57,052 bases of DNA from an uncultured Candidatus Peribacteria bacterium (GTDB lineage Bacteria > Patescibacteriota > Gracilibacteria > Peribacterales > Peribacteraceae): the NCBI GenBank assembly GCA_964373065.1, contig CAYJSJ010000004.1, positions 1 to 57,052 on the forward strand, read 5' to 3'. Both the position numbers and the translations under genes were made by a program. Of the stretch, positions 8,904-36,888 are shown piece by piece. The notes beneath the pieces are model-generated. The model made no database searches. It saw nothing but the letters and a program-made list of their open reading frames with translations, and had not been told where the DNA came from. How positions within the stretch are numbered: the stretch's first letter is position 1; the number at the start of each line of letters is the position of its first letter.

Positions 8904-8927
8904 ACCTTTTTCGCAAGATTGCGAGAT

Positions 8928-9707
8928 CTACACTTTTTCAGCAGAAATCATGAGGGCATGTCCGCGCCGAAACAGCGGTATAAAGAGTGCGTCCTCCAGC
9001 CTGCAGAGCGGAATAAGTATCGCCAACGAAGCTCGTAGAGCTTTGTAGAGCAGTGATGTCTGCGCTTCGAGGAGTTCGCTTTGTGCTTCGAAACGTTTGC
9101 GTCGTGCCAGAAAGACCACTTTCGTACATTCCATGATGAGCTCCGAGAGCAGAAACATAGACTGGCGTGTTTGGAGTACTTTGAAGCCATTCTCCGTGAG
9201 CTTTCGTCCAAGATCCTGCGGGAAATATCCGTCGCGATAGTGGAATTCTCCGCCATGGTGGTGTCCGAGCTGTTTGAGTTTCGCCGTAGCGCGAAAGCCT
9301 TTGAGTGAAGGTGTCGTGATGACGACGCGCCCGCCGGGTTTCAGCACTCTGCGGATCTCGCGCAAGACGTTCGCATCGTCTTCGATATGCTCGATCACTT
9401 CGCAAAAGAGTATTTTATCGAAGGTGTTCTCCGGATAGGGAATGGTTTCCACGCTTCCGACCTGCACATGGGGCGTGATGTGTTTACGTACAAACTCCAC
9501 TGATTCGGGACTGACATCCATGCCGTGGAGAGTCGCACCTGTTTGCTGCAACTTCAGGAGGAAGTAGCCCAAGCCGCAGCCTGCATCCAGCACGGTCTCG
9601 CCGCGTTTAACGTCCAATAGTCGAAGGATCGGTTCGCGCATGCGTACGTTGATATTGCCATGCAACACATGGGAACGGGGCGTGAGCGGCATGGAGAAAT
9701 GGTACAA
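8928..9707 (-). CDS. Class I SAM-dependent methyltransferase
   Basis: 259 aa. Motifs: [34 protein letters not shown]. Confidence 0.85.
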
Positions 9708-9781
9708 TTCTTCGATCGAATTTCCATCTTTTTCTGCTGCGATTACCTGTGCACCTCGTCCATTGGTGGTATCGTACCGGC

Positions 9782-10693: not shown

Positions 10694-10697
10694 CCCT

Positions 10698-12503: not shown

Positions 12504-12510
12504 TGAAACT

Positions 12511-13593
12511 TCACTCTAAAAATTCATATTGCAGCGGTGTTCCGCGTCTTATGTCCTGCTTTGCTTTTTTGCCGAGAACATTCGGCAGTTCTTTCGGTGG
12601 CATGCCGTTCCCCGGACGGATGGAGCGGACATTGTTCGTTGTAAATACTTCTCCTTTACGGATATTTTCTACCACAAAGAGCGATCTCCGGAACGGGACG
12701 CAGGATTTTTCATGTTCCGTATGCGTGTAGGAGACTTCGCCAAGCACGATGGGGTCCACGTTCACCGCATCGGGGTTGCTCTCTGCTTTTCGTACTGCCT
12801 CCGCCATTTCTTTGAATTCGTTCGGCTCGAGCGAGAAAGCGGAATCGATGCCCTTTTCGTTACGGGACATGCAGAAATGCTTCTCGATGACACATGCACC
12901 GAGGGAAACTGCCGCGACGGGGACACAAAAGCCAAGCGTGTGATCGGAGAGGCCGACAGGGACGCCGAATCTCGTGCGCATATCTGGAATCGTTTTCAGA
13001 TTCGCTTCTTTCGGGAGCGCAGGGTAAGCGCTGGTGCACTTAAGTAAGATCAACTGATCATTGTCTGCCAGACGCACGGTTTCGACGGCAGCAGCGATCT
13101 CTTTTCTGCTTCCCATTCCCGTCGATATGATGATCGGTTTGCCCTTCCGCGCGATATGTTCAATCAAGGGGGTATCGACAAGCTCGAATGATGCGATCTT
13201 GTACGCGGGGACACCCATCTCTTCCAAAAAGTCCGTTGCCGTCGGGTTGAACGGTGTCGAGAAGAGATCCATGCCGAGATCGTTTGCAATCTTCTTGAGT
13301 TTTGGGTGCCATTCCCATGGTGTGGCGGCTTCTTCGTAGAGTTCGTAGAGTGTTTTGCCGCCCCAGAGCGTATCGCCGCCGATCGTAAATTCAGGTCGAT
13401 CACTCTCTATCGTCAATGTATCGGCAGTATATGTTTGCAATTTTACTGCATCGGCACCCGATTCTTTCATCGCACGGATAATCTCCACAGCTCTATCGAA
13501 ACTTTGGTTATGGTTCCCGGACATTTCGGCGATGATGTAGGCGGGGCAGCCTTCGCCTATTTTGCGGCCGTTGATGGAGACAGCGCTCTTCAT
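12511..13593 (-). CDS. pseI: NeuB-family nonulosonic-acid synthase, pseudaminic acid synthase-like
   Basis: 360 aa. Motifs: IIAEMSGNHNQS, ADAVKLQTY, GLSDHTLG, IEKHF, DSAFSLEP, plus a C-terminal SAF-like domain. It overlaps the PseG/H gene by 4 nt. Confidence 0.88.
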   Translation of the reverse strand: MKSAVSINGRKIGEGCPAYIIAEMSGNHNQSFDRAVEIIRAMKESGADAVKLQTYTADTLTIESDRPEFTIGGDTLWGGKTLYELYEEAATPWEWHPKLKKIANDLGMDLFSTPFNPTATDFLEEMGVPAYKIASFELVDTPLIEHIARKGKPIIISTGMGSRKEIAAAVETVRLADNDQLILLKCTSAYPALPKEANLKTIPDMRTRFGVPVGLSDHTLGFCVPVAAVSLGACVIEKHFCMSRNEKGIDSAFSLEPNEFKEMAEAVRKAESNPDAVNVDPIVLGEVSYTHTEHEKSCVPFRRSLFVVENIRKGEVFTTNNVRSIRPGNGMPPKELPNVLGKKAKQDIRRGTPLQYEFLE

Positions 13594-15095: not shown

Positions 15096-15104
15096 ACGTT
15101 CATC

Positions 15105-16118: not shown

Positions 16119-16137
16119 ACCGAAATAGCGTACTAGA

Positions 16138-17322: not shown

Positions 17323-17324
17323 CG

Positions 17325-18363: not shown

Positions 18364-19629
18364 ATGGAGTATTGCAAACGATGCTGTTATCCGGCAAACG
18401 CTAAACCGACCATCCTTTTCGATGAGCAGGGAATTTGTAGCGGATGCAGATTGCACGAGAGCAGACCGTCGATCGATTGGAAGGAGAAGTGGAGACAATT
18501 CCAAGAAATTCTCAAGGAGTACAGCGCAAAAGCACGGGCCAATGGAAGCGCGTACGATCTCATTATTCCCGTGAGCGGAGGAAAAGACAGCCACTATCAA
18601 ACGCATCTGATCAAAGATCTTGGCTATAACCCTCTCCTCGTCTGTTATAATCACGGGTTCAACACCAAGCGTGGGATCCGCAATCTCACCAACATGCTCC
18701 GACAGTTCAATTTCGACCTCGTCCGTTTTACGTCGAGCCCCGAGGCCGCGCGTGTCATTTCGAAGTTCATGCTCAAAACTGTCGGCGATATAACGTGGCA
18801 TTACCATGCTGGAATTATGACGTTTCCGATCAAGGCGGCAGTTATGTATAAGATTCCGCTTATTCTGTGGGGCGAACACGGACGTTCCGATCGTACGGGT
18901 ATGTATAACCAGAGCGACATGCTGGAGTTCAGTAAGAAAGACAGGCAGGAGCACAGTATGCGGGGTTTCGAGCCGGACGATATTCTTCGGCACCCCAATA
19001 ACACCAAGGTGAAGCCGGAGCACGTGAATCCCTTTTATTACCCGAGTGACGACGAGATCGAGTCCGTGGATGTGCGGGGAATCTACCTTAGTAACTTTAT
19101 CCAGTGGAACGATCGGAAGCAGACAAAAGAAATGATTGAGAAGTACGGATTTGAAACCGCGATGACACGGGAACGCACGTACGTACTGCATTCCAAGCTC
19201 GATGATATCCATGCCAATGGTGCGCACGATTATCTCAAATACCTCAAATTCGGTTATGGCAGAGCAACGGATGATGCGACGATCGACATCCGGCACGGAC
19301 GCATGACACGCGAAGAAGGTATCGCAATGGTCAAGAAGCATGATTGTGTTCGTCCATCAGACCTCGATGTATGGCTTCGGTTCGTCGGTATGACCGAAGA
19401 AGAGTTCCTTGGTCACATCGAGCATCTTCGCGATCCGCTCATGTGGCAGAAGGACAGCAAAGGGCAGTGGTGTGTGAAAGATTCTATTGCCAATCACCTT
19501 AATGATGAGGGTGTGGATTTAGCGCGGGTGACGCAGGTAAAAGACCGCAAGATCATCTGTTCCGCCAATCAGCCTTTCTCTTCCCGGGATGATCACATCC
19601 CCGAGGATACGGAGTATATTTGGTTATGA
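18364..19629 (+). CDS. N-acetyl sugar amidotransferase (WbuX/WbpG/PseA family, PP-loop ATPase)
   Basis: 421 aa. N-terminal CxxC...CxxC (CKRCCYP...CSGC) and PP-loop IIPVSGGKDSHYQ. Confidence 0.88.
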   Translation: MEYCKRCCYPANAKPTILFDEQGICSGCRLHESRPSIDWKEKWRQFQEILKEYSAKARANGSAYDLIIPVSGGKDSHYQTHLIKDLGYNPLLVCYNHGFNTKRGIRNLTNMLRQFNFDLVRFTSSPEAARVISKFMLKTVGDITWHYHAGIMTFPIKAAVMYKIPLILWGEHGRSDRTGMYNQSDMLEFSKKDRQEHSMRGFEPDDILRHPNNTKVKPEHVNPFYYPSDDEIESVDVRGIYLSNFIQWNDRKQTKEMIEKYGFETAMTRERTYVLHSKLDDIHANGAHDYLKYLKFGYGRATDDATIDIRHGRMTREEGIAMVKKHDCVRPSDLDVWLRFVGMTEEEFLGHIEHLRDPLMWQKDSKGQWCVKDSIANHLNDEGVDLARVTQVKDRKIICSANQPFSSRDDHIPEDTEYIWL

Positions 19630-20040: not shown

Positions 20041-21480
20041 ATGAAAATTATTCTCAAAGCATTTGACGACGACATGGGCAAGTTCCTGACGGAGAGCATT
20101 GCAAACGGGCTTCCGATCGAAACGTGCATCTCCATCGTCGATGATCCGAATAAACTTCCCGATCTTGACGAGAAGGTTGAACACATTTTTCTGTCTGCAA
20201 AGGCGCTCCGTGCTGGGCAGTACCCGCATGTGGACTGGAATACTATTGCGCCACTCGATGAGGAACTCATCGAATCCATGCGCGATTGCGAAGCGGTGTT
20301 TTTAAAAATGGTAGGACGGTACGCAATTTACCTGGACATCCCCTATGATGAGCGCAAACGGCAGTACTTGCGGCACTTGCGGTACTGGAACCACATGCTG
20401 GATGAGAAGAAGATCGATCTCTTTGTCATGCGAGGAGCTCCGCATCAATGCTACGATCTTGTCATTTGGGATCTGTGCAAGCGCAAGGGTATCCGCACGA
20501 TAACAATCCCATATTTTTTTTTAGTAGATGCGTTCAGTGTGGGGGAGAACTGGGAAGAGGTCGGGAAGCAGATCGGCGATCGTACGGCGGAATTGCAGAA
20601 GCAATACACCGACCCGAATGTCACAGTCCCACTTTCTCCGGAATATGAGGAGTATTACTCCATATACACAAACAAGCAAAAACAGCTGTGGTACATACAG
20701 AGGACTCATCCGCATCTTACGCACAGCGTTTTTCTGGCAAAGTGGCTGCATCCGGCGTTAACTATCATGCAACGCAATCCCAGCTATTTTCTGAAGTGTG
20801 TCATCTCACCGGATTTTTGGCGACGGAAATGGCGTCATCACCAAACACGAGCATGTTACGACTCCCTGGTGGAGGAGCCCGATCTTACTGTTCCTTATAT
20901 CTACGTTCCGCTCCATATGCAGCCGGAAGCAACGACCTGCCCCATGGCCGGCGTGTATGTGGATCAGGAACTTATGGTGCAAGTGCTTGCGGCTTGCCTT
21001 CCAAAAGGTGTCAGAATTTATGTGAAGGAACATCCCAACCAAGGAGAGCTGTGGCGTGATGTTGAATTTTATCAAACATTGCATGCCATTCCTTCCGTCA
21101 CGCTTATTTCTCGCACTTTCAGTTCGTTTGAATTGACCGAACATGCTGTGGCAACGGCAACGGCAACCGGAACCGCATGTTTCGAAGGATTGTTTCGAGA
21201 GAAGCCAGCGATTATGTTCGGGCACAAATTCTTTCAATATGCTCCGGGAGTTCATCGTGTCCGCACAACCGCGGATTGTCGACGTGCCATAGAGAATATT
21301 TTTGTAAAACAACAGCGCCACACTTTGCGTGATATGCGTATTTATCTGAAAGCAATTGAGGATGTAGCGGGTGTAGGTCTACAGAAGACGTGCACGGTTC
21401 GACCACCCGAAACCAGGACGGAGCGGGCAGTGAAGATGGGAGAATATGTTCGGCAAAGGATAGAGCAAAATAATATTTAA
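20041..21480 (+). CDS. KpsC/KpsS-like ('capsule polysaccharide biosynthesis') GT-B protein, candidate CMP-ulosonic-acid transferase, paralogue 1
   Basis: 479 aa. Motifs: YIYVPLHMQPEATTCPMAG, IYVKEHPNQ (HP motif), ATATGTACFEG. It aligns along its length with 22289..23752. Confidence 0.7.
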   Translation: MKIILKAFDDDMGKFLTESIANGLPIETCISIVDDPNKLPDLDEKVEHIFLSAKALRAGQYPHVDWNTIAPLDEELIESMRDCEAVFLKMVGRYAIYLDIPYDERKRQYLRHLRYWNHMLDEKKIDLFVMRGAPHQCYDLVIWDLCKRKGIRTITIPYFFLVDAFSVGENWEEVGKQIGDRTAELQKQYTDPNVTVPLSPEYEEYYSIYTNKQKQLWYIQRTHPHLTHSVFLAKWLHPALTIMQRNPSYFLKCVISPDFWRRKWRHHQTRACYDSLVEEPDLTVPYIYVPLHMQPEATTCPMAGVYVDQELMVQVLAACLPKGVRIYVKEHPNQGELWRDVEFYQTLHAIPSVTLISRTFSSFELTEHAVATATATGTACFEGLFREKPAIMFGHKFFQYAPGVHRVRTTADCRRAIENIFVKQQRHTLRDMRIYLKAIEDVAGVGLQKTCTVRPPETRTERAVKMGEYVRQRIEQNNI

Positions 21481-22288: not shown

Positions 22289-23752
22289 TTACGAATGTTC
22301 TGTCAGTCGTTTCCGTAAGGCATCTGTGAATGCGTCTGTACTTTCCTTCACAGGAAGATCCGAGTAGTTGAGGTAGTACCAATCCGTTATGGAGGCATGC
22401 ATGCGAGTGTCCTCCACCGCTTTCATAAATCGTCGCACCGCTCCAGGGTCCGGCTTCACTTTCTTTCGGAACACTTCATCCATTGCCTTACTGCAATCTT
22501 CACATGTTTTGATCCAGAATACCGCTGGGGCATATTGGTAAAAGACATGACCGAACAGCAATACGGGCTTTCCTCGAAAAATACCCTCCAATCCCGCCGT
22601 ACCCGTTCCCGTGGCAACGGCACTGCAATGTTCGCGGAGTGCGAAGGTGCTGGTTTCATGCGTCACGAGACGAACATTCGGCATGGCGACAAGTTCTTTG
22701 TAGAATGCGAGGTTACGTCCTAGTATTCCGGCTTTTCGTTGCCGCGGATGTTCCTTCACATAGATCAGGACGTTGTTGGGAGCCGTGTGCGAGAGCAGAT
22801 GTATCGAAACCGTTTGATCGACGAATGCCCCCGCCATAGGACACGTGGAACATTCCGGCTGATACTGGAGAGGGAAGTAGATATAGGGCGTTTGAAGATC
22901 GGGTTCCACCGCATGATCATCGTAGAATTTTCGCAAACGGTATTGTGCCCATGTCGATTTCATCTTGTGCAATCTGCGCGCCCATTTAAGGGAGGACCAC
23001 AGAGAAGGAAGCCAATGCAGGAATGCACCCGGAGTCGCCAAGATTCTCTGGCAGTACCTCTGGAGCGGGCCCTGCGGTTTTTCGAGAAAGATAAACGGGT
23101 ATTTTCCTTCCTGACTCGTCTGCTGCTTACAGTACTCCTCCAACTTCGGTGAAAGCTTAATATCGGAGGCCGGTACCGTGCGGAGTTCCTCGAGACGATC
23201 CTTGATCTGTTCCGCCGACGCTTCAATGTCCTCCTGCAGGAATGCCGTATCCCGTATAGGGGTGGCATGGGAAAAGATTGTGCGGATTTTCTTGTGCTTG
23301 CAGAGAGCGTAGATGAGGTGGTCAGGCATCTCATGCGGCAGGGTCGACGAAAGGAGGAGGTTGATGTTCCGCCGCTCCAAAAAATCGTTCCAGAACCGCA
23401 AGTGCAGCAGGTATCGTTGTTTGCGTTCCAAATATGGGATTGTTTTCGCGTATTCCGCGCGAATCATCATGTACATAAATAATGCTTCGCAGTTCCGCAT
23501 ATCCTCAATGATCTTTTCATCGAGCGGGAGCAGCTCTGCGTGAACCGCCCCGGCGTAGAAGCCGTTGCGCAGGTCGCTTGTGTTGAACCACGGCTGGTTT
23601 TCCGCACTGAGTTTCGGATATGCATACGGTTGTGCGCTGAGATTTGCGCAAAACTCAAAGGGAAGATCCTGCATGATGCATTTCAATGCCTCATGGCAAA
23701 CGATGCCGTTCCAGCGCAGTGTGATGGCACGAAAAGGTTGTTGCATAAACAT
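22289..23752 (-). CDS. KpsC/KpsS-like GT-B protein, candidate CMP-ulosonic-acid transferase, paralogue 2
   Basis: 487 aa. Motifs: YIYFPLQYQPECSTCPMAG, IYVKEHPRQ, ATGTGTAGLEG. The start is ambiguous (M1/M3/M27). Confidence 0.7.
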   Translation of the reverse strand: MFMQQPFRAITLRWNGIVCHEALKCIMQDLPFEFCANLSAQPYAYPKLSAENQPWFNTSDLRNGFYAGAVHAELLPLDEKIIEDMRNCEALFMYMMIRAEYAKTIPYLERKQRYLLHLRFWNDFLERRNINLLLSSTLPHEMPDHLIYALCKHKKIRTIFSHATPIRDTAFLQEDIEASAEQIKDRLEELRTVPASDIKLSPKLEEYCKQQTSQEGKYPFIFLEKPQGPLQRYCQRILATPGAFLHWLPSLWSSLKWARRLHKMKSTWAQYRLRKFYDDHAVEPDLQTPYIYFPLQYQPECSTCPMAGAFVDQTVSIHLLSHTAPNNVLIYVKEHPRQRKAGILGRNLAFYKELVAMPNVRLVTHETSTFALREHCSAVATGTGTAGLEGIFRGKPVLLFGHVFYQYAPAVFWIKTCEDCSKAMDEVFRKKVKPDPGAVRRFMKAVEDTRMHASITDWYYLNYSDLPVKESTDAFTDALRKRLTEHS

Positions 23753-23833: not shown

Positions 23834-25060
23834 ATGCACGTACGGCATATCTCGCCATTTTCCATCAGTGTTTCCGTTACCTCTGGTGAGCCATACTTCC
23901 CGGAATCGGTGACGCAACTACCCGCTGTTTTAGCAGGGAAAATCCCGAATGAATGTGGTTTTACGGCTGATCTTCTATGGTATGCTCCCACACACTTTCC
24001 ATATTCTTTGTCGCGTTCACTCACCATCGACGGGGTCTTCATCGACGACACGACCGATGCGTATGTGATCGCCGAAATCGGTCACAACCATCAGGGCTCG
24101 ATAGAAAAAGCGGAAGAGTTGTTCCATGCGGCGAAGCTTGCGGGAGCTTCCGCCGTCAAATTGCAAAAGCGCGACAATAAGAACCTGTTTACGAAAGACT
24201 ATTATGACAGACCCTACGAAAACGAAAACAGCTTCGGCTCCACCTACGGTCAGCATCGGGAAGCATTGGAATTCGGACGCAAGGAGTTTGAACGGCTTAT
24301 CGCTTTGGGCAAAAAAATCGGCATCATGGTATTCTCGACGGCGTTCGACGTACCCAGTGCGGATTTTCTCGCGGAGCTCGACATGCCCGTCTATAAGATT
24401 GCATCCGGCGACCTTCGCAATACTCCGCTCATCCGTCATATCGCGAAAATCGGAAAGCCCATGATCCTAAGTACGGGTGCCGCGCTTATGGAGGACGTGC
24501 GTCGCGGGTACGAAGCGGCGCGCGAACATAACGATCAGGTCGCCGTTTTACAATGTACTGCAACCTATCCCGCGCAGGTCGAGGAGATGGATATACGAGT
24601 CATCCAAACGTACCGCGATGCTTTCCCCGAAGCCGTCATCGGGCTCTCCGCGCATGACCATGGCATCCTTATGCCTGTCGTCGCATATCTGCTCGGCGGA
24701 CGCATCATTGAGAAACATTTCACACTGGATCGTGCCATGAAAGGGACGGACCATGCGTTCTCGCTGGAACCACTAGGGCTGAAGAAGGTGGTTCGTGATT
24801 TAAAAAAGGCCCGTATCTCTCTTGGTTCCGCCGAGAAGCGCATGTTCGAATGCGAACGGTTGGCATCGGTCAAAATGGGCAAACAATTGGTTGCTTCTCG
24901 CGATCTGCCGGACGAGCACGTGGTGGTTTCGGGAGACATAGCGATCAAATCTCCGGGAGGAGGTATCCCGCCCTATGAACTCGAGATGCTGATCGGTCGA
25001 CGTCTAAAGAAAGCTCTCTCCAAAGATCATGCCTTCACAGCTGGAGATTTTTCCGCATGA
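23834..25060 (+). CDS. NeuB-family synthase of the phosphorylated-substrate type (Neu5Ac-9-P / KDN-9-P synthase-like)
   Basis: Track ORF trimmed to the ATG at 23834; the start is uncertain. Motifs: VIAEIGHNHQGS, VKLQKRDNKNLFTKDYYDRPYENENSFGSTYGQHREALEF, GLSAHDHG, EKHFTLD, DHAFSLEP, plus a SAF-like C-terminus. Confidence 0.85.
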   Translation: MHVRHISPFSISVSVTSGEPYFPESVTQLPAVLAGKIPNECGFTADLLWYAPTHFPYSLSRSLTIDGVFIDDTTDAYVIAEIGHNHQGSIEKAEELFHAAKLAGASAVKLQKRDNKNLFTKDYYDRPYENENSFGSTYGQHREALEFGRKEFERLIALGKKIGIMVFSTAFDVPSADFLAELDMPVYKIASGDLRNTPLIRHIAKIGKPMILSTGAALMEDVRRGYEAAREHNDQVAVLQCTATYPAQVEEMDIRVIQTYRDAFPEAVIGLSAHDHGILMPVVAYLLGGRIIEKHFTLDRAMKGTDHAFSLEPLGLKKVVRDLKKARISLGSAEKRMFECERLASVKMGKQLVASRDLPDEHVVVSGDIAIKSPGGGIPPYELEMLIGRRLKKALSKDHAFTAGDFSA

Positions 25061-26361
25061 GCATAATTCTCAACGTATTACCGGCCAAGCCAGCGCTAGT
25101 TGTTTTTGATTTTGACGGGGTCATGACCGACGATGCTGTCTATATCGGAGAAGATGAACGCGAATGGGTGCGTTGCGAGCGCGGTGACGGTATGGGCATC
25201 TCGGAGCTCCGTAAACACGGAATTCCGTTGCTTGTGCTCTCTACAGAGAAGAACTCTGTCGTGGCTGCGCGTTGCAAGAAGCTTTGCCTCGAATGCATGC
25301 AAGGGTGTGACGACAAAGCCGCAACATTGAAAAAAATCCTCGATGAGCGCGGTCTCCCCGCTGATCGCATCGTGTACGTTGGAAACGACATCAATGATAT
25401 CGCGTGCCTGGGCATGGTCGGATGCGGCATTGCAGTCGCCGACGCGCATCCTCGCGTCCTTGCCGTGGCGGATGCCGTGCTCACCCGACCGGGTGGCCAC
25501 GGTGCAGTGCGAGAACTCTGCGATTTGATCGTGCAGAAAACGACGGGAACAATGGCGACGACGTCCGGCATGGCGCCGCTGACACGGCAGGAGCGCTACG
25601 AGCGAAACAGAGAATACATCGAGCGCGAAGGCCTTGATCATCTGATCGATTTTCAGATCAACAATGATTTTAAGGAGGGTGTGTTCGACGCCGTCAGCGG
25701 CAGGCTTGCGACGCCATTCCCGCCGGACCCGGCGGATCTCTCTCGGCTCCATCAACTTATCCGCAAACGCATGTCCTTCACCGTCCTCGAATTCGGCGTA
25801 GGGTACTCCACGCTTGTCATCGCCGATGCACTTCGGAAAAACCAGCATGATTGGGATGGACTGAAGCACAAACCCGCGATTCGGAACCGTTTCATGTTCC
25901 AACTGTTCTCCGTCGACTCTTCCAAGTCATGGGTCAAACACGCGCAGAGATTGATACCCCAGGATCTCGCTGACCGGGTCCACCTGCATTACACCGAGGT
26001 GCACATCGGAACTCATAACGGTCAACTCTGCCATTTCTGCGATTGTCTGCCCGATATCATTCCGGATTTCATCTATTGCGACGGTCCGGGCGTGAAAGAC
26101 GTACAGGGTGAGATCCGCGGATTGAGCTTTCAATGCGACGAGCGCACCACCATGCCTGCCGACTTGCTTCTCATGGAATCCACCTTCCTTCCGGGAACAT
26201 TTATTCTTGTGGACGGCAGGACGAACAACACCCGGTTCCTGCAGCGCAATTTCACGCGGACATACATCGTGCGACACCACCGCCAGGACGACGTTACTAC
26301 GTTCGAACTCAACGAAGAGCGATTGGGGAAATACAATATTTTAGGATCGGATTTCTTTTAG
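25057..26361 (+). CDS. Fusion: KdsC-family HAD-IIIA phosphatase (ulosonate-phosphate phosphatase-like) + class I methyltransferase-like domain
   Basis: 434 aa. N-terminus: VVFDFDGVMTDD...YVGNDINDI...GGHGAVRE. C-terminus: VLEFGVGYST, FIYCDGPG, GTFILVDG. There is a 4-nt overlap with the NeuB2 stop. Confidence 0.8.
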   Translation: MSIILNVLPAKPALVVFDFDGVMTDDAVYIGEDEREWVRCERGDGMGISELRKHGIPLLVLSTEKNSVVAARCKKLCLECMQGCDDKAATLKKILDERGLPADRIVYVGNDINDIACLGMVGCGIAVADAHPRVLAVADAVLTRPGGHGAVRELCDLIVQKTTGTMATTSGMAPLTRQERYERNREYIEREGLDHLIDFQINNDFKEGVFDAVSGRLATPFPPDPADLSRLHQLIRKRMSFTVLEFGVGYSTLVIADALRKNQHDWDGLKHKPAIRNRFMFQLFSVDSSKSWVKHAQRLIPQDLADRVHLHYTEVHIGTHNGQLCHFCDCLPDIIPDFIYCDGPGVKDVQGEIRGLSFQCDERTTMPADLLLMESTFLPGTFILVDGRTNNTRFLQRNFTRTYIVRHHRQDDVTTFELNEERLGKYNILGSDFF

Positions 26362-26480: not shown

Positions 26481-27425
26481 ATGCAACTGACGCATAAAAC
26501 ACTGGGGCGCACCGGGCTCTCAGTTTCGGTCGTAGGACTCGGAACGGTCGAGATCGGGATGGAGTATGGCATCGGCCCAAAAGCGGTTCCCGACGAACGG
26601 ACAGCGGTCGAACTGATCAAACGCGCAGTGGACGCCGGCATTACCTTCATTGATACGGGGTTCAGTTACGGCCTCGCAGAGGAGAGAATCGGCATCTCCG
26701 GTATCCGCAAACTCCCCGGCGTCGTCATCGCGACAAAATGCGCTCAGGAACTCGAACGCGGCTGCGATCTGCGCGGGAACGAACTTCGGATGCTTATCCG
26801 AAATCAGGTGGATGAGAGTTTGCGACGCCTGCGGCAGGACTCACTCCAGCTTTTGCAATTACATTTTGCGACCAAGGAGCAGATTGAGCGCGGCGAGGTG
26901 ATTGACATCCTCCGGAAGATCAAAGAGGAAGGCAAAGCGCAGCACATCGGCATCTCGACGCGCGGAGAGGAAGCGCCGCTTGCGGCAATCGCCACCGGAT
27001 TTTTCGATACCGTGCAGATCGCCTACAGTATTCTCGATCAGCGGATGGCACCGCGGGTGCTGCCGGAAGCTTCTCGCAGCGGGGTGGGCATCATTAACCG
27101 TTCAGTTTTTCTCAAAGGCAGCCTCATTCCCGCTCGGCGAGAGCTGCTGCCGAGCGCGTTGGTTTTGCTGAAGGAACGCTCCCGTTTGGCCGAGGGAATC
27201 GCCGCCGATCTTGGTATGGACCTGCCTTCGCTCGCTCTGCGGTTTGCCCTCAGCAATCCGAACATTACCACTGCACTTATCGGAACGACGAAGTTGGAGA
27301 GACTAACGGCGGCTGCGGCTGCGATGCAGGCGGGTCCGTTGCCGGAGGATGTCGTGAAGCGACTGCATGCACTCGCCATCGATGACCCGCTGCTCGTGGA
27401 TCCCTCCAAGTGGCCGCCGGTCTGA
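26481..27425 (+). CDS. Aldo/keto reductase
   Basis: Trimmed to the ATG at 26481 (MQLTHKTLGRTGLSVSVVGLGT). ITFIDTGFSYG. A typical AKR N-terminus. Confidence 0.85.
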   Translation: MQLTHKTLGRTGLSVSVVGLGTVEIGMEYGIGPKAVPDERTAVELIKRAVDAGITFIDTGFSYGLAEERIGISGIRKLPGVVIATKCAQELERGCDLRGNELRMLIRNQVDESLRRLRQDSLQLLQLHFATKEQIERGEVIDILRKIKEEGKAQHIGISTRGEEAPLAAIATGFFDTVQIAYSILDQRMAPRVLPEASRSGVGIINRSVFLKGSLIPARRELLPSALVLLKERSRLAEGIAADLGMDLPSLALRFALSNPNITTALIGTTKLERLTAAAAAMQAGPLPEDVVKRLHALAIDDPLLVDPSKWPPV

Positions 27426-27430
27426 GACGA

Positions 27431-28237
27431 TCACTTCTTCCGCTTCTTTTCTTTCAGAAGCATCTTGTAGACCATTTCGGCGTGATGAAGATCCGATGGC
27501 ACATCGATATCCGTAGCGCTGCGGGGATCGAGTACGTACCCGTGGATATTCTTTCCCCAGATATTGTCATATTTCAGACTCTCGGGGCGCAGGACGAATC
27601 GGCGTCGAGTGATGTTGATCTGTCCATCTTGGAAGTACACGGGAAACATCCGTTGAATCTGCTGTCGCGGTTGGTCGGGACCGCGAAGACGACGGTACGC
27701 GTTGTCCATGAATGGTTGCATCGGTCCCGCCTGACCGATGTTCGGCATCTTCGGCGCTTTAAAGCGCCACATTTTGTAGGGATGATCCATGGCAGGCATG
27801 ACGCTTTTAATGCCGTCGGCACCGCTTTTTTCCATGTAACGGATCATGGCATCAATATCTTCGGAAAATCGCAGCGGACTTGTCGGATACAAATTAACAA
27901 TGAGTTCTGGCGTCCAGCCGAATTCCTCCTCGACCCACGTCACCGTATGATGGAAAAATCCGGCATCTCCGCTTTCGGACTGAGCATATTTCGCCGGGCG
28001 GGGTGCCACCAATGCTCCGTATTTACGAGCCTCGCGGGCGATTTTTTTATCTTCCGTCGATACGACAACCGCATCAACCAGTTTGGCTTTCGATGCGACT
28101 TCGATTGCCCATGCCACCAAGCTTTTGTCGCCGATTTTCAGCAGGTTTTTGTAGGGGATGCCTTGCGAGCCGCCCCGGGCGGGGATAAGTGCCAGAACCC
28201 GGACGGGTTTTCTCTTGGGATTTGAGAGCGTCATCAT
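27431..28237 (-). CDS. Acylneuraminate cytidylyltransferase family (CMP-nonulosonate synthetase) 1
   Basis: Track ORF 27431..29044 trimmed to ATGATG at 28237 (MMTLSNPK...). Motifs: ALIPARGGSQGIPYKNL, YPTSPLR. Confidence 0.85.
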   Translation of the reverse strand: MMTLSNPKRKPVRVLALIPARGGSQGIPYKNLLKIGDKSLVAWAIEVASKAKLVDAVVVSTEDKKIAREARKYGALVAPRPAKYAQSESGDAGFFHHTVTWVEEEFGWTPELIVNLYPTSPLRFSEDIDAMIRYMEKSGADGIKSVMPAMDHPYKMWRFKAPKMPNIGQAGPMQPFMDNAYRRLRGPDQPRQQIQRMFPVYFQDGQINITRRRFVLRPESLKYDNIWGKNIHGYVLDPRSATDIDVPSDLHHAEMVYKMLLKEKKRKK

Positions 28238-30851: not shown

Positions 30852-31490
30852 GTGATTACGGTAATTGACTACGGGATGGGCAATCTGAAGTCCGTATGCA
30901 ATGCCGTAGAAGCACTTGGGCAGGAGGTGTGTCTTACGCGTGATCCGGAACGTATCCAGACGGCTTCCGGCATTATACTTCCCGGCGTCGGCGCATTCGG
31001 GGAGGGTATGCGTAACCTGCATGCGTTCGGTCTTGTCGATGTTCTCAACCGGGAAGTCATCGGGAAAAAGAAGCCGTACCTCGGTATTTGCCTGGGGTTG
31101 CAATTCCTTGCGCGCACCGGGTTTGAGGATGGCGAGCATGCGGGGCTCGGCTGGGTGGAGGGCGTGGTGAAGCTCATCGAGCCTCAAGGCGACGATCACA
31201 AGGTGCCGCACATGGGATGGAATAACGTCGAGGTACTTCGTGATTCGGTGATCCTCAGAAATCTTCGGAAAGATCCCGTCTTCTATTTTGTCCATAGCTA
31301 CGCATTGGTGCTCGATTCCACGGAAAAAGGGATCCTGACATCGGTCGCCGATCATGGTTGTACGATTACCGCCAGCCTCGAGAAGGACAACATTTTCGCA
31401 ACGCAGTTCCATCCGGAAAAAAGCCAGAGCACAGGGCTCATGGTTCTGAAAAACTTTATTTCCTTCTGCGAGAGCCATGCTCAAACATAG
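30852..31490 (+). CDS. HisH-like glutamine amidotransferase subunit (WbuY-like)
   Basis: A GTG start at 30852 gives (M)ITVIDYGMGNLKS. Motifs: ILPGVGAFG, GICLGLQ (catalytic Cys), FVHSY, QFHPEKS. Confidence 0.88.
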   Translation: MITVIDYGMGNLKSVCNAVEALGQEVCLTRDPERIQTASGIILPGVGAFGEGMRNLHAFGLVDVLNREVIGKKKPYLGICLGLQFLARTGFEDGEHAGLGWVEGVVKLIEPQGDDHKVPHMGWNNVEVLRDSVILRNLRKDPVFYFVHSYALVLDSTEKGILTSVADHGCTITASLEKDNIFATQFHPEKSQSTGLMVLKNFISFCESHAQT

Positions 31491-32316
31491 ACTTATTGCC
31501 TGTCTGCTCTGGCGGGATAGCTTTCTGATCCAGAGTAAGAACTTCAAGCACACCAATGCCGTCGGGTCTGCTATGACTGCGATCGATTTTTTCAATACGT
31601 GGGCGATTGATGAGATCGTTCTCCTCGATGTTACGAGGAAGAAGGACAGCCGCGACATGTTCCACCGCGATCTTTTGGAACTTTCCAAGCGGTGCTTTGT
31701 TCCGCTCTCGGTTGGCGGGTGGGTACAGAGTGTCGATGATGTGCGGCAGCTGCTGACGGAAGGTGCGGACAAAGTGATCGTGAATACCGCTGCACTCGAG
31801 GATGAAACATTGCTACCCGCCGCCGCCAAGAGGTTTGGTAACCAGTGCATGGTGGTGTCGATCGATGCAAAGATGAATGCAGATGGTACGCATGAAGTGT
31901 TCACGCATCGCGGGAGCACACCTACCGGCGTTTCCGCCGTTACTTGGGCGAAGAAGGCGGAGAGTATGGGTGCAGGGGAGATCTTCCTTACGTCGATTGA
32001 TCGCGATGGATCTCAGAAGGGATACGATTTGGAATTGATCGAGTCGGTGAGTGCGGCAGTTGATATACCCGTGATTGCGTCCGGAGGGGTCGGGGAGTGG
32101 GAGCATATGGCCGCAGGCATTCGCGCAGGTGCTTCAGCAGTCTCTGCGGCCAACATTTTCCACTACTCCGACCAGAGTACAAAGAAGGCGAAAAATTACC
32201 TTTTTAAGCATGGCATCGATGTTCGTCGGCCGGAATTTTATGATATTCCACTGCCGCGCATGCCCGTCTACCGCGAGAGCAATGTTTCCGGGGTGATGAC
32301 GGTGGAGGGGACTTGA
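31477..32316 (+). CDS. HisF-like cyclase subunit (WbuZ-like)
   Basis: 279 aa. Motifs: RLIACLLWRD, DEIVLLDV, GGWV, ADKVIVNTAA, SIDRDGSQKGYD, ASGGVG. 14-nt overlap with the HisH-like gene. Confidence 0.88.
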   Translation: MLKHRLIACLLWRDSFLIQSKNFKHTNAVGSAMTAIDFFNTWAIDEIVLLDVTRKKDSRDMFHRDLLELSKRCFVPLSVGGWVQSVDDVRQLLTEGADKVIVNTAALEDETLLPAAAKRFGNQCMVVSIDAKMNADGTHEVFTHRGSTPTGVSAVTWAKKAESMGAGEIFLTSIDRDGSQKGYDLELIESVSAAVDIPVIASGGVGEWEHMAAGIRAGASAVSAANIFHYSDQSTKKAKNYLFKHGIDVRRPEFYDIPLPRMPVYRESNVSGVMTVEGT

Positions 32317-32448: not shown

Positions 32449-33303
32449 TTGACTGCCGCACTTACTTCCGAGGTGGATATTCCAAGTGCGCTACAAAAGG
32501 CACAGTGGATGTATGAAACACATCCGAACATACTCGTAGATGCCGTCGTTCATTCTTTCGAGGAGCACCCGGAACTTCGCGAGAAAATGTACCGTTATTG
32601 TTTCATGGGTGAAGTGCAGGTTCAGGCATTCTTCCTCGAGGTTTTGGAACGCATGAAAGGAGATCCATCGATTTGTGTAGAGCTCGGCGCTTTTTTATTG
32701 AAGAAGATTCCTAAGAAGGAGCACGAAGCAATGCAGTTGCTACACTCCTCGAAGAAGTATTTCACATCGGAAGGTAAAGAAGATCCTCGTGCTTTGAAAC
32801 TACTCTCGACTATTGCGTATGAGGAGTATAGGCCGCTTCATAGAGAGGCTGAGCCCGTACTGAATAGCGTGAAGCTCTATGCGTATGGTGCTAAAGATGT
32901 ACAGAAAATATGGGATGAACATCCCGCGGAATTAGATGCACTGAAGAATGCAATGGAACATCTACGGGAATCTCTTCGAAAGGATTATGCACGAAAAGAT
33001 TTATTCTCCGCTCTCCCGACTCACAATCGTTTGGTTGCCCTGGCATGGGATAGCCGAAGGCTGTCTCCACAGAAAGCATTAGATTTGTTTACAAACATAC
33101 TTGCAACATACGATCGTGTAACAGTCACAACCGGTTCTGCCGATGATCAGAAATTACGTACGCTCAAGAGTAATACCATCAATCGTTTGGAGGAAGTGTA
33201 TACCGCCATGGGTAACGCGGAAAGAGCACAGGAGATGAATGCACTTTTTAAGAAACTCCGACCGTCTACGAAGCCAGCCACCCCGAAAGATCCCTCCCGA
33301 TAA
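32449..33303 (+). CDS. Hypothetical, predicted all-helical protein (orphan by eye)
   Basis: 284-aa ORF starting at TTG; ATG at 32509 is an alternative. The composition is protein-like, with a TPR-like C-terminus (NRLEEVYTAMGNAERAQEMNALFKKL). The 3' end overlaps the convergent sulfotransferase by 38 nt. Confidence 0.5.
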   Translation: MTAALTSEVDIPSALQKAQWMYETHPNILVDAVVHSFEEHPELREKMYRYCFMGEVQVQAFFLEVLERMKGDPSICVELGAFLLKKIPKKEHEAMQLLHSSKKYFTSEGKEDPRALKLLSTIAYEEYRPLHREAEPVLNSVKLYAYGAKDVQKIWDEHPAELDALKNAMEHLRESLRKDYARKDLFSALPTHNRLVALAWDSRRLSPQKALDLFTNILATYDRVTVTTGSADDQKLRTLKSNTINRLEEVYTAMGNAERAQEMNALFKKLRPSTKPATPKDPSR

Positions 33304-34000
33304 TCTTTTCCGTCAGTGCGATGTCTTTTCTGTAGAGATCGCGGAGTGTTTTTTTTGCTTTCTGCGACATCGGCTTTTCCGCCGGAGGATTAACGTTGTG
33401 TTTCTGCGACATGTCGGGAACGAAAGTAGGATCAACGTCGAGGAACTTCAGGCACTCCTCTAGGACTGTGAGCGGACTTTCGACGAAATCCTCGTAGAGA
33501 AAAATCTTCAACCGCTCACGGGGGAATTGCGCACGGTAGCGCGCGAGTTGCTCCCCGTAAAAGCCGCGGCTCTTATAGCTGCGCATAGGATCGAGATCCT
33601 CAACGGCGAGGCATTCTTCAAAATTCTCGCGCTTCTCTTTTCCCTGTCGCCCGCGCATGAGGTAGTGCGAGTACGCTCGCTCGACGGGATTGCGAAGAAT
33701 CACGATCATCTTGGCATCCGGAATCATTTTTCGGATCAGTTCCGGCGAATCGGGAACTGCAAGGTAGGCGGGGGACGTTTCTCCGATGGCTTTGGCGTCC
33801 CCGGCTTCGGCAAAGAGCGTGCGATACTCGTCGCTGTCCCTCACCGTTCTATCAAGCAGGCAGAGTGCCGAATCCTGCGCGAAGAAGTTCGTCTCTTTCT
33901 GCGGGAGCATGAAGATCTCCGGATGCTGCCCGAGGTAGTGGTGCAGGGACGTCGTCCCCGCCTTCGTGGCGCCGATGATCAGAAAAGTGGGCAGTCGCAT
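33266..34000 (-). CDS. PAPS-dependent sulfotransferase
   Basis: Trimmed to the ATG at 34000 (MRLPTFLIIGATKAGTTSL, the 5'-PSB loop). ILRNPVERAYSHY is the 3'-PB motif. Confidence 0.88.
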   Translation of the reverse strand: MRLPTFLIIGATKAGTTSLHHYLGQHPEIFMLPQKETNFFAQDSALCLLDRTVRDSDEYRTLFAEAGDAKAIGETSPAYLAVPDSPELIRKMIPDAKMIVILRNPVERAYSHYLMRGRQGKEKRENFEECLAVEDLDPMRSYKSRGFYGEQLARYRAQFPRERLKIFLYEDFVESPLTVLEECLKFLDVDPTFVPDMSQKHNVNPPAEKPMSQKAKKTLRDLYRKDIALTEKIIGRDLSGWLAS

Positions 34001-34035: not shown

Positions 34036-35079
34036 ATGCGCAAAGAAATCGCAATCGGAGGCCGAAAAATCGGCGACGGACACCCGCTTTTCATTATCGC
34101 CGAGTGCGGAATAACCTGTAATTATGATCTCACGATCACAAAGAAACTCATCGATGCGACCGTTGCGGCCGGGGCGGATGCCGTCAAATTCATCTTCTGG
34201 TTTCCCGACGAAATCATGTGCGATACAACCGTGACGGCGACGTACCAGACTGTGCGCGGAGAAGAGGTGGTGAACATGTACGAGCGTTTTAACTCTCTGC
34301 GCTTTACACTGGATGAATGGAAGGAGGTAAAAGCCTATGCCGACAAGAAAGGCGTCATTGTTTTTTCCACAGTCAATTCTCCAAGCGGCATTACGTACGC
34401 GGAGGCACTGGGGCTGGATGCGTATAAGCTGAGTTCTTGGGACTATAACGACTTGCCACTCTGGAAGAAAATCGCCGAAATCGGCAAGCCGATGCTTATA
34501 GATACGGGACCGGTCTTTGACGAAGATGTAGAGAAGGTGATGGGTATTCTGCGCGGTGCGGGTAACGATCAATGCGTTCTGTTGCACTGTTTTCATACAA
34601 AGAACTATGCCGAGATGAATATGCATGCCATCCCGTACATGCGCGAGACGTTTGATGCATTGGTCGGGTACTCGGCTGCGGACAGCGATGACAAACTGGA
34701 CATTATGGCGGTTTCTCTCGGTGCGTGCATGCTCGAGAAGCGCATCACCATCGACCGATCGCTCCCCGGGCACCACCACGTTCTCTCCAAGCTTCAAGAC
34801 GAGTTTGCGGCTTACGTAAAGGAAATGCGCGATGCGCATGCTGCACTCGGGACGCATGGGCTTACACCCAGTGCCAATGATCTTAAGGAACGGAAGAAAT
34901 TCTTCCGGCATCTTGTGGCCAACAAAGATCTTGCCGCAGGAACCGTCCTCACAGCGGAGATGCTTGCTAGCAAGCGCGGCGAGTACGATGTTTCCCCCGA
35001 GCATATCGATCAATTTATCGGAGCGGTACTCAAGCGTGATCTAAAGGAGAACGCATCCATTCTGCATACCGATGTCTAA
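34036..35079 (+). CDS. Divergent NeuB-family paralogue (TIM barrel + SAF-like domain) lacking canonical catalytic motifs
   Basis: Trimmed to the ATG at 34036 (MRKEIAIGGRKIGDGHPLFIIAECG...). It has the overall NeuB layout but reads AECGITCNYD, VKFIFW, GYSAAD and EKRI where the paralogues have conserved residues. Confidence 0.75.
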   Translation: MRKEIAIGGRKIGDGHPLFIIAECGITCNYDLTITKKLIDATVAAGADAVKFIFWFPDEIMCDTTVTATYQTVRGEEVVNMYERFNSLRFTLDEWKEVKAYADKKGVIVFSTVNSPSGITYAEALGLDAYKLSSWDYNDLPLWKKIAEIGKPMLIDTGPVFDEDVEKVMGILRGAGNDQCVLLHCFHTKNYAEMNMHAIPYMRETFDALVGYSAADSDDKLDIMAVSLGACMLEKRITIDRSLPGHHHVLSKLQDEFAAYVKEMRDAHAALGTHGLTPSANDLKERKKFFRHLVANKDLAAGTVLTAEMLASKRGEYDVSPEHIDQFIGAVLKRDLKENASILHTDV

Positions 35080-35758
35080 GACGCTCTGCATCATACCGGC
35101 TCGGGGAGGCTCCAAGCGGTTCCCCGGAAAAAATGTAGCGCTCCTCAATGGAAAGCCACTTCTGGCATATGCAATCGAAGTTGCAAAAGCGAGCGGAGTC
35201 TTCGATGCGGTGTGCGTTTCATCGGATGATCCACGTACGTTAACGATCGCAAGAGAATACGGAGCGGATATCATTCACGATCGACCGGCGGATCTGGCGA
35301 CCGATGCCGTGCAGCTCAAAACATTGTGTAAGCATCTCCTTGAAGAGCTTTCTCTAAAGGGAACGCCATACGATACGTTTGCACTTCTGATCCCGGTAAG
35401 CCCCCTGCGTACGGCGGAGGATATTCGGAAAGCGTATGCACTCCTGCAATCGTCGGATGCGCATACTGTGATGAGCGTCATGCGCTACTCGCACCCTGTA
35501 CAACTTGCTGTGTGCATTCGAGATGGCTACCTGAAGCCATTTTTTGGATCTGAGCATTTGAAACCCGCTCAAAAACTCGAGCCGCTCTATCGGCACGATG
35601 GCACTGTCATTTTTTGTAAGACCGACGCGTTTCTGCGTGAGGGAGATTTTTACGGATCAAAAGTCATCCCTTACGTAGTGCCTCCGGAACGTTCGGTGAA
35701 CATCGACGAGCCGATGGATCTGCAGTGGGCGGAGTTTCTCCTTTCTCGATCTTCATAA
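35072..35758 (+). CDS. Acylneuraminate cytidylyltransferase family (CMP-nonulosonate synthetase) 2
   Basis: 228 aa. Motifs: CIIPARGGSKRFPGKN, IPVSPLR. 8-nt overlap with the preceding NeuB3 gene. Confidence 0.88.
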   Translation: MSKTLCIIPARGGSKRFPGKNVALLNGKPLLAYAIEVAKASGVFDAVCVSSDDPRTLTIAREYGADIIHDRPADLATDAVQLKTLCKHLLEELSLKGTPYDTFALLIPVSPLRTAEDIRKAYALLQSSDAHTVMSVMRYSHPVQLAVCIRDGYLKPFFGSEHLKPAQKLEPLYRHDGTVIFCKTDAFLREGDFYGSKVIPYVVPPERSVNIDEPMDLQWAEFLLSRSS

Positions 35759-35763: not shown

Positions 35764-36888
35764 ATGCGGATAGCTCTCTTTGCGTCTACGGCCGATCGCA
35801 CGAACGGATACGGTAACATCACCTGCGCACTCTCTACACATCTCCATGCGCTTGGGTGCTCTATTACGCTCTTCCTTCCAAAAAACGAGGAGACATTGGT
35901 ATCTGATCTTCGCTTTCCATTTGAAACGCGCTGCGTGCTTCCGAAGAACGTGTTCCGCCTGTACCAGCGAGAAGGATGGAAGTTTTTGCGCTCGGTTGAT
36001 GTTGCAAGGTGCGATATTGTCCATTCCCTCTTCGCGTTCCCGTACTGCATCACAGCGCTCCGGTCTGCGCGGAAGTATGGAAAGCCGTTTCTCATGGGGG
36101 CGCAGGGAACGTACGGTGTGCGGCCGCTCACACAGTTTCCAGAGCGGTTCTTCCTTAAGCAATGCTACGCGTCTGCGAAGGCGATCATGACTCCCAGTGA
36201 ATGTACCAAGCGAAAGATCATTGAATATGCCGGGCGGGACTACCCGATCACGGTCATCCATAATGGCGTCGATTTCGATCGTTTTCAGAGGAATATTCCC
36301 AGTATCTTGAGCCGCTTTGCGGGGAAGAAGGTGCTGCTTACGGTCGGCGGACTGAAGGAGCGCAAAGGGCAGGATCTTGTACTCAAAGCATTGCAGAAGA
36401 TCAGACAACGTCGCAGTGACGTCGTCTATGTGCTCGTTGGCGAAGGAAGCTGGGAGCAGGGACTCAAAACTCTTGCGAAGGATTTGGGTGTATCGGATTG
36501 CGTCATCTTTGCGGGGAACAAGACGGGAGATGAGCTCGTGGCGTATTTTCAGGCGTGTGATATCTACGTGCATACGCCGAAAGTCGTGGACTTGAATTTC
36601 GAGGGTTTCGGCATTGTCTACTTGGAAGCGGGTGCTTGCGGTAAGCCGGTTGTCGCGACGGATGCGGGTGGCATACGCGATGCGGTTATAGATGGGGAGA
36701 CTGGCCTTATCGCGCCTGATCTGGATGTCGATGGCATAGCAGACCGCATTCTTTTGCTCCTCAATGATCCAATGCTTGCAGCAACGATGGGGGATGCCGG
36801 ACGCGCCTATGCGCAAAAGAACAACTGGAACACTATTACGAAGCAGTTCATGCGTCTTTACGAACAAGAATTAGGAATTACACATTAG
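35764..36888 (+). CDS. GT4-family (GT-B, Glycos_transf_1) glycosyltransferase
   Basis: Trimmed to the ATG at 35764 (MRIALFAS...). Motifs: LLTVGGLKERKGQD, EGFGIVYLEAGACGKPVVATDAGG (EX7E). Confidence 0.88.
   Translation: MRIALFASTADRTNGYGNITCALSTHLHALGCSITLFLPKNEETLVSDLRFPFETRCVLPKNVFRLYQREGWKFLRSVDVARCDIVHSLFAFPYCITALRSARKYGKPFLMGAQGTYGVRPLTQFPERFFLKQCYASAKAIMTPSECTKRKIIEYAGRDYPITVIHNGVDFDRFQRNIPSILSRFAGKKVLLTVGGLKERKGQDLVLKALQKIRQRRSDVVYVLVGEGSWEQGLKTLAKDLGVSDCVIFAGNKTGDELVAYFQACDIYVHTPKVVDLNFEGFGIVYLEAGACGKPVVATDAGGIRDAVIDGETGLIAPDLDVDGIADRILLLLNDPMLAATMGDAGRAYAQKNNWNTITKQFMRLYEQELGITH

Follow-up and report, generated by a model that had tools for sequence, protein, structure and literature searches.

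A widespread branch of the NeuB family with a predicted rebuilt metal site, encoded beside a co-inherited cytidylyltransferase in pseudaminic acid-type gene clusters

Nonulosonic acids, among them the sialic, legionaminic (Leg) and pseudaminic (Pse) acids, decorate flagella, capsules and S-layers and shape immune and phage recognition. In the Neisseria meningitidis NeuB studied by Gunawan et al. in 2005, the carboxylate of phosphoenolpyruvate (PEP) is reportedly bound by Lys53, Lys129 and Thr110 and the phosphate by Ser132, Ser154, Asn184 and Ser213; Mn2+ is said to sit on His215 and His236, where it also touches the phosphate and the aldehyde oxygen, while the attacking water is reportedly held by Glu25 and Glu234 and the N-acetyl group by Arg314 of the partner's SAF domain. 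NeuB enzymes are domain-swapped dimers, and this SAF-domain Arg314 completes the active site of the partner subunit. Every NeuB-family synthase described in the structures and literature that we surveyed uses the same two-histidine metal site, and a large phylogenetic survey of NeuB found only E134D variation among the catalytic residues (PMC8208679). The accessible literature yielded no NeuB clade without the metal histidines, no second NeuB-like protein required in Pse clusters, and nothing relevant on "PseJ" or on a Pse aldolase or epimerase. Here we describe a NeuB-family protein without these histidines, NeuB3, encoded on a 57,052-nucleotide stretch of DNA from an uncultured Candidatus Peribacteria bacterium (contig CAYJSJ010000004.1; hereafter the window), and the family branch to which it belongs, which we call R-type after the Arg of its E-K-R motif. 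The reading that we favour, tentatively and with somewhat less than even confidence, is that an R-type NeuB and its partner cytidylyltransferase (CT) form a two-gene module that acts after PseI on a free nonulosonate, and that the R-type protein is not a second PEP/Mn-dependent synthase.

NeuB3 occupies positions 34036..35079 of the plus strand, from an ATG at 34036 to a TAA at 35077-35079, and encodes a protein of 347 amino acids with a TIM barrel followed by a SAF domain. Pfam assigns it a NeuB domain (PF03102, 5.9e-49) and then a SAF (AFP-like) domain (PF08666, 6.7e-11), and an AlphaFold2 (AF2) model built on 40 homologues (pLDDT 93.5) has the fold of the known synthases, with Foldseek TM-scores of 0.85-0.87 against PseI (8H2C) and 0.82-0.87 when 8H2C and NeuB (1XUU) are taken together; more distant matches are to KDO8P synthase (KDO8PS) and DAHPS, at E about 1e-12. 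A first-pass annotation of this DNA had proposed that the barrel scaffold and SAF-like domain are kept, as they indeed are, and profile searching, which it had named as a possible refutation, leaves the protein inside the NeuB+SAF family. It had also described the open reading frame (ORF) as intact, overlapped by 8 nt by the transferase gene beginning at 35072 and followed by a family 4 glycosyltransferase (GT4) gene, all of which holds; the overlap is 35072-35079, with the sequence ATGTCTAA, and the transferase starts at the ATG at 35072. NeuB3 falls well under both NCBIfam equivalog cut-offs, scoring 210.6 against 399.65 on the NeuB model (TIGR03569) and 184.3 against 340.25 on the PseI model (TIGR03586), and since it does slightly better on the NeuB/LegI-type model than on that of PseI, it is no recent duplicate of the PseI in its own cluster. 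By fold and sequence NeuB3 belongs to the NeuB superfamily, and it lies outside the functional synthase family, whose metal ligands it lacks and whose equivalog scores it does not reach.

A tblastn search of the window located three NeuB-family genes, at 12511..13593 on the minus strand (NeuB1, a canonical PseI), about 24008..25060 on the plus strand (NeuB2) and 34036..35079 on the plus strand (NeuB3), the last being 28-30% identical to the other two. We aligned NeuB3 with HMMER to N. meningitidis NeuB (1XUU/1XUZ), with L-INS-i to 16 canonical synthases, and to the two paralogues. All three alignments keep the same register and place A215 (codon 34678..34680) and R236 (codon 34741..34743) of NeuB3 at the positions of the metal ligands His215 and His236. 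The motifs reported at first reading, AECGITCNYD, VKFIFW, GYSAAD, EKRI and HHHVLSKLQ where the other two paralogues have NH, KLQ, LSDH or LSAH, EKHF and D(S/H)AFSLEP, are thus correct, as is the claim that both metal histidines have been replaced, by Ala and Arg. Further replacements surround them: D156 (34501..34503) stands for the phosphate-binding Ser154, H187 (34594..34596) for Tyr186 of the Y-P motif, with a one-residue deletion beside it that removes the Asn/Ser184 position, H246-H247-H248 (34771..34779) for the canonical P-D247-x, T27-C28 for Asn29-His30 and I53 for Gln55, all of these codons lying on the plus strand. The residues that NeuB3 keeps are E23, K51, T112, K131, S134, S213, E234, K235 and R314.

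Shifted histidines, which the first-pass annotation had offered as a possible refutation of metal-ligand loss, were seen in none of the three alignments. The histidines nearby (H184, H187 and H246-248) align with canonical H181, Y186 and P246/D247/x and not with the metal ligands, so we rejected a rescue of the site by shifted histidines. Cys28 was likewise discarded as a clade-wide metal ligand of the KDO8PS kind; it is invariant only in the close family, and Ala, Ser, His, Asn or Ile occurs elsewhere.

One rival explanation makes NeuB3 a redundant third copy in decay, its catalytic residues being lost. Searching 5.8 billion proteins, we obtained NeuB-family matches in the thousands, and the best 120, all about 347 amino acids long and 58-86% identical to NeuB3, served as close homologues. 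Position 236 is Arg in 119 of the 120, while position 215 drifts among Lys, Pro, Ala and Thr (39 Lys, 21 Pro, 19 Ala). Invariant in this set are T27, C28, N29, Y30, W55-F56-P57, T112-V-N-S-P, S133-S-W-D, D156-T-G-P, H184-C-x-H187, E234-K-R236 and H246-248, and because the replacements are invariant across hundreds of homologues they are not due to chance. The orthologous genes that we recovered with their DNA (54-86% identical) are all intact (19/19), with no disrupted frame; disrupted frames had been named in advance as another possible refutation. Against the closest orthologue (84% identical) dN/dS is 0.05; with the others synonymous sites are saturated (54-64% amino-acid identity) and dN is 0.30-0.41. 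In ten complete clusters NeuB3 is the slowest-evolving protein, with a mean p-distance of 0.40 compared with 0.46 for PseI, 0.47 for the CT, 0.51 for PseC and 0.66 for PseG. The proposal that this is a constrained, repurposed member of the NeuB family and no pseudogene is borne out by these intact orthologues, the low dN/dS and the lowest divergence in the cluster. The missing pair of canonical histidines is the sole point in favour of pseudogenisation, and against it stand the intact frames, the dN/dS, the invariance of the replacement residues, the depth and monophyly of the clade (below) and the confident fold prediction; we regard that explanation as refuted by the conservation data and give it practically no weight.

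With a profile we searched 1.84 billion representatives and obtained 2579 matches at E <= 1e-30, the best 145 of which (50% identity clusters) we classified. The canonical signature (N-H, S-T-G-M, Y-P, S-D-H, E-K-H, P-D) was found in 118 of them, with H236 in 118/118 and H215 in 99%; 21/145 carry the R-type signature (T27, W135, D156, H187, no D-H at 214/215, R236 and a His in loop 246-248), all features of which are present in NeuB3, and 6/145 are other variants. In canonical numbering the R-type replacements are N29T, G133W, S154D, Y186H, H236R and D247H, together with loss of the D214-H215 pair. T27, W135, D156, D222 and R236 are the new residues that hold throughout the clade without exception, and every R-type representative has at least one His in loop 246-248; in one branch (P0192/L037) positions 187 and 247 are Arg or Gly (Arg187, Gly247). 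A neighbour-joining tree joins all R-types and two near-variants in one clade, and a profile made from 19 distant R-types separates about 80 matches at >= 363 bits from canonical proteins at <= 308 bits. R-types are therefore an old, discrete, monophyletic and widespread branch of the NeuB family, and NeuB3, first taken for a paralogue that had lost residues locally, is better seen as a member of this old clade with its correlated set of replacements. The loss of the K-x-Q glutamine, also part of that first description, holds for the close family, where it is Ile, and does not extend to the wider clade, in which 10/21 members have Gln. No R-type was found on the plasmids of cultured bacteria in PLSDB, which carry only canonical PseI of <= 34% identity, and no fusion of an R-type to a CT or to PseI was seen, while canonical NeuB-CT fusions are common.

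Four other proteins from the search (P0165, P0168, P0193 and P0263) keep S-(D/C)-H with His215, have E-K-T or E-K-P for E-K-H, and carry Asp154 and Glu247; they represent a different partial remodelling of the metal site.

Mapped onto the ligands of the known synthase, the carboxylate clamp and the water-holding glutamates (K51, K131, T112, E23 and E234) are invariant in R-types. The phosphate-ligand set is not retained: an Asp stands invariantly in place of Ser154, the residue at 184 has been deleted, and only 57% of the clade has Ser at 134; S213 is kept. As judged from the alignments, R-types keep the elements for the keto-acid carboxylate, the water and the N-acyl group, and have replaced the metal and most of the phosphate site by an invariant Arg/Asp pair plus histidines. 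This bears directly on a rival explanation that we find plausible, though less likely than the reading that we favour, namely that NeuB3 continues to form C-C bonds as a nonulosonate synthase whose catalytic centre has been re-engineered, its product being activated by the partner CT. Such an enzyme might work without a metal, R236 serving to polarise the aldehyde or to bind a phosphate as in metal-independent KDO8P synthases, or might use a relocated metal site made of D156, H187 and H247; its substrate might be a hexosamine that PseI handles poorly (acetamidino-, formyl- or free-amino), or, through opposite facial selectivity, its product might have the opposite C4 stereochemistry. The conservation of E23, E234, K51, K131, T112, S213 and R314 and the full-synthase architecture and length speak for it, but little of the phosphate site is left (S154D invariant, 184 deleted, S134 only 57% Ser), and H187 and H247 are not universal, so that a 2-His-1-Asp site at D156/H187/H247, which we considered separately and regard as weakened by Arg187 and Gly247 in the one branch, would not be clade-wide.

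The genomic context of R-type genes offers a second line of evidence. We compared about 30 R-type loci from more than 10 phyla, which are not phylogenetically independent; they come from Syntrophobacterales, Omnitrophota, Methylomirabilota, Rokubacteria, Acidobacteriota, Ignavibacteriales, Planctomycetia, Nitrospiraceae, several lineages of the Candidate Phyla Radiation (CPR) and others. The typical order is pseB-pseC-[R-type]-CT-pseG/H-pseI-hisH-hisF-wbuX. Nearly all R-type loci with sufficient flanking DNA also encode a canonical PseI. Among 12 R-type loci scanned, 10 have a partner synthase that exceeds the cut-off of the PseI equivalog model (430-518 against 340), as does that of the window, where NeuB3 lies 21 kb from PseI and next to its CT. 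Four deep-branching R-types (30-40% identical) also lie in Pse-type clusters, with one CT each (upstream-adjacent in two) and with another NeuB that has the canonical residues at all diagnostic positions. In none of the about 30 loci, nor in the four deep branches, is an R-type the only NeuB of its cluster. Because canonical PseI accompanies R-type so regularly, the R-type gene is probably an add-on to the Pse pathway, and an independent third nonulosonate pathway is unlikely.

WbuX homologues occur in most R-type loci, and the full amidotransferase trio WbuX/HisH/HisF was found in 13/16 core R-type loci and in 6/32 PseI loci that lack an R-type gene (Fisher p = 8e-5, with no phylogenetic correction and with control loci selected for their similarity to the PseIs of R-type clusters). 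Deeper R-types have PIG-L deacetylases, formyltransferases and methyltransferases as neighbours. The tie of the core family to the trio, and the PIG-L and formyltransferase genes beside the deeper members, fit a synthase that takes an unusual hexosamine; however, the trio also occurs in Pse clusters without an R-type, so the R-type is not required for amidination. In the deep-branching L038 locus (7437-13760) a full WbuX-like/HisH/HisF trio lies on either side of the R-type gene, giving two trios in this locus, with PIG-L, carbamoyltransferase and formyltransferase genes nearby. In a 41%-identical Phycisphaerales/Syntrophobacteraceae subgroup (L031-L033, ~9044-9709) the R-type gene is followed not by a CT but by a methylase of family TIGR03587 ("pseudaminic acid biosynthesis-associated methylase", 137 bits); the CT of L032 is about 6 kb away. 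Three B12-binding radical SAM genes flank the R-type-containing Pse cluster of another contig (P0009, JGI), and a 2026 preprint describes C10 ulosonic acids of Magnetospirillum whose origin is unknown (10.64898/2026.04.20.719630).

The partner CT of the window (35072..35758, plus strand, 228 amino acids) is a PseF-like member of Pfam CTP_transf_3 with an N-terminal PARGGSKR motif. Its best NCBIfam model is PseF (TIGR03584), at 179 bits against a cut-off of 205.7, followed by KdsB at 49, and the CTs of R-type loci lie below the PseF cut-off in all 15 loci, the window included (139-194 against 205.7, with no match for the CT of L038). We used the window CT as a phmmer query against R-type loci and against a control of 80 PseI-centred metagenomic loci that have no R-type gene and whose NeuB-like ORFs are all EKH-type. 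CTs of R-type loci scored 164-292 bits (n = 25), whereas those of the R-less Pse loci scored <= 141 bits (n = 17), or about 20 bits where another type of nucleotidyltransferase was present. Similarity thus points to a CT subfamily that is dedicated to, and seen only with, R-type NeuB. The first-pass annotation had called this gene NeuB3's own cytidylyltransferase, which is apt insofar as it belongs to a co-inherited subfamily seen only with R-types, and less so in that it is also the only CT available to the canonical Pse pathway, since the Pse operon of the window has none. A dedicated CT subfamily is what a divergent synthase with its own product would also call for, but such a synthase would leave the PseI product, nearly always made alongside in a locus with one CT and usually one hexose-forming set, without an activating enzyme of its own.

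The presence of canonical PseI in almost all loci with sufficient flanking DNA, the single dedicated CT and what is usually one set of hexose-forming enzymes make it most economical to suppose that NeuB3 no longer condenses PEP. In the module that we favour, NeuB3 and its overlapping CT would plug, as a co-inherited unit, into a complete Pse pathway. NeuB3 would have given up PEP/Mn-dependent synthase activity and would bind the unphosphorylated nonulosonate made by PseI, with R236 and D156 in place of Mn2+ and phosphate. It would then convert or present this product, in the order PseI, free Pse, NeuB3, partner CT and CMP-sugar. The conversion nearest to the ancestral reaction would be a reversible cleavage and re-formation of the C3-C4 bond or a dehydration and rehydration, either of which would epimerise C4, probably the only stereocentre within reach of alpha-keto-acid chemistry on a NeuB scaffold. 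A C4-epimeric (L-gluco) series of nonulosonates occurs in nature as fusaminic acid, and we know of no described biosynthetic route to sugars of this type. It is therefore conceivable, as a speculation that we think quite improbable in this specific form, that R-type NeuB is the first isomerase of the Pse pathway, a metal-free Arg/Asp/His enzyme descended from a synthase that epimerises free Pse at C4 by retro-aldol/aldol or dehydration/rehydration chemistry, its product being trapped by the CT to give L-gluco, fusaminic-acid-type nonulosonates.

Several points weigh against a module that acts after PseI. E23 and E234, the invariant glutamates that place the nucleophilic water during synthase catalysis, fit retained synthase chemistry equally well. 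Two phosphate ligands remain, S213 throughout and S134 in most members, and a phosphate could also be bound by R236. That the PseF scores stay under the cut-off could be due to phylogenetic distance from the seed sequences of that model and not to an altered specificity. Selection of the 80 control loci relied on similarity to the PseIs of R-type clusters, and the loci lack phylogenetic independence. Gene neighbourhood, moreover, does not separate an enzyme that acts on Pse from a non-catalytic partner that binds it. In the latter case NeuB3 would be a ligand-binding or scaffold subunit, in a heterodimer with PseI or a complex with the CT, that channels Pse or tunes specificity or regulation. 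The loss of both metal ligands alongside invariant R314/K313 and SAF domain, the free drift at position 215, the co-occurrence with PseI, the adjacency to one CT subfamily in either gene order and the 8-nt translational coupling, which suggests stoichiometric co-production, would all suit such a subunit. We nonetheless consider it unlikely, for the new polar pocket (T27, D156, H187, D222, R236 and H246-248) is conserved as strictly as is usual for catalytic residues, and NeuB3 evolves more slowly than the enzymes around it; mirror-tree correlations (r = 0.56 with the CT and 0.57 with PseI) are no higher than between other cluster genes and so are uninformative, and a fusion to either supposed partner was not among the R-types seen.

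The remaining genes of the window place NeuB3 in a region of some 40 kb, in a CPR-like sequence, that is filled by nonulosonate and glycan biosynthesis. The Pse operon lies on the minus strand and comprises PseI (12511..13593; 477.9 bits on TIGR03586, cut-off 340.25, with the NH, KLQ, SDH, EKH and D motifs kept), a PseG/PseH fusion (13590-15095), a GFO oxidoreductase (15105-16154), PseC (16138-17322; 460 bits, cut-off 423) and a pseB-like 4,6-dehydratase-like SDR (17325-18314); no cytidylyltransferase was found within it (12511-18314). On the plus strand follow a WbuX-family N-acetyl sugar amidotransferase (18364..19629; TIGR03573, 310.8 bits, cut-off 203.2) and, farther on, its HisH-like (30867-31490) and HisF-like (31477-32316) glutamine amidotransferase partners. 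A sulfotransferase gene (33266..34000, minus strand) diverges from NeuB3 across a 35-nt spacer, and the GT4 gene (35764..36888, plus strand, likely start ATG 35764) lies directly downstream of the partner CT. The sulfotransferase context and the NeuB3-transferase-GT4 order both recur in a Patescibacteria locus (L002).

NeuB2 keeps both metal histidines, has SAH for SDH, and carries Ser in place of the SAF-domain Arg314 (KS for KR). The next gene, which overlaps its stop by 4 nt (24008-26361 for the pair), encodes a fusion of a KdsC/KDN-9-P-phosphatase-like HAD domain with a methyltransferase-like region, and the two genes resemble the synthase and phosphatase of a 9-phosphate-type (Kdn/Neu-9-P) pathway distinct from that of Pse. 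The only other CT of the window (~27431-28222, minus strand) is part of this module of NeuB2, KdsC-like phosphatase, aldo-keto reductase and SDR; it scores 98 bits on the PseF model, is 31% identical to the NeuB3-linked CT, and lies hidden beneath a plus-strand ORF (27410-28225) that has no family matches. Between the Pse operon and NeuB2 are two Capsule_synth (KpsC/KpsS-like) genes, at 20041-21480 and at 22289-23752 (the latter on the minus strand), and a methyltransferase gene. The nonulosonate genes of the window are flanked by a CysN/APS-kinase fusion (10698-12503) and by the sulfotransferase (33266-34000, minus strand), and L002 has the same arrangement of sulfotransferase, R-type, CT, APS kinase, GT4 and epimerase (9233-9979 and 11873-12406, both on the minus strand), which suggests a sulfated, nonulosonate-containing glycan in CPR bacteria.

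A clade of this kind, which cannot operate through the two-histidine metal site, across many, mostly uncultured phyla, the CPR included, implies a step or product in the biosynthesis of Pse-type sugars that has gone unrecognised. Automatically annotated NeuB homologues are all named as synthases, whether "sialic acid", "legionaminic" or "pseudaminic", and the close homologues of NeuB3 do bear these names, implying systematic misannotation in metagenomes; the named homologues come from metagenome-assembled genomes, apart from one Okeania record. R-types are, besides, a natural experiment in the rebuilding of an active site for PEP/metal aldol-type chemistry, and the isomerase reading, if true, would bring the enzyme types of nonulosonate biosynthesis to seven. 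Since PseI, PseF and the substrates of both can be obtained chemoenzymatically (PMC7910423, PMC11040635), the NeuB3-CT module is cleanly testable.

Among described systems, the PseI, NeuB and LegI synthases (PF03102 + PF08666; 8H2C, 1XUZ) are closest to NeuB3, which resembles them in its two-domain fold (TM 0.82-0.87), its length and its place in nonulosonate clusters beside a CMP-transferase, and which shares with them, in canonical numbering, E25, K53, T110, K129, mostly S132, S213, E234, K235 and R314. It differs in having a variable residue at 215 and R236 for the Mn ligands, in the loss of D214 and D247, in S154D and G133W, in T-x for N29-H30 and H-T with a one-residue deletion for Y186-P, in scores far below both NCBIfam cut-offs, and in accompanying a canonical synthase instead of replacing it. 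The class I, metal-independent KDO8P synthases, of the same structural superfamily, provide a precedent for loss of a metal ligand in a conserved, functional enzyme. There a single Cys-to-Asn change suffices for metal independence and the rest of the site is kept, whereas NeuB3 has had both ligands and the greater part of its phosphate site rebuilt and shares its pathway with a paralogue of the metal type. In the class II pyruvate aldolases HpaI/HpcH, which are metal-dependent, an essential Arg stabilises the pyruvate enolate, and a His and a carboxylate serve proton transfer at the C4-OH. This logic resembles the R236/D156/His set over the keto-acid pocket of NeuB3, an analogy that, the sequence families being unrelated, may serve as a mechanistic lead only. 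As for add-ons to a nonulosonate pathway, we know of no NeuB homologue among those that yield Leg-derived epimers and of no equivalent of them in the Pse pathway. The Leg pathway is the only one known to produce epimers (PMC7371886), through Aci, 8eAci and 8eLeg modules that are add-on genes in lga clusters and are proposed to act on CMP-Leg (PMC5595891). Like the NeuB3-CT pair as we picture it, these modules are extra genes on a complete nonulosonate cluster that turn a standard sugar into an isomer.

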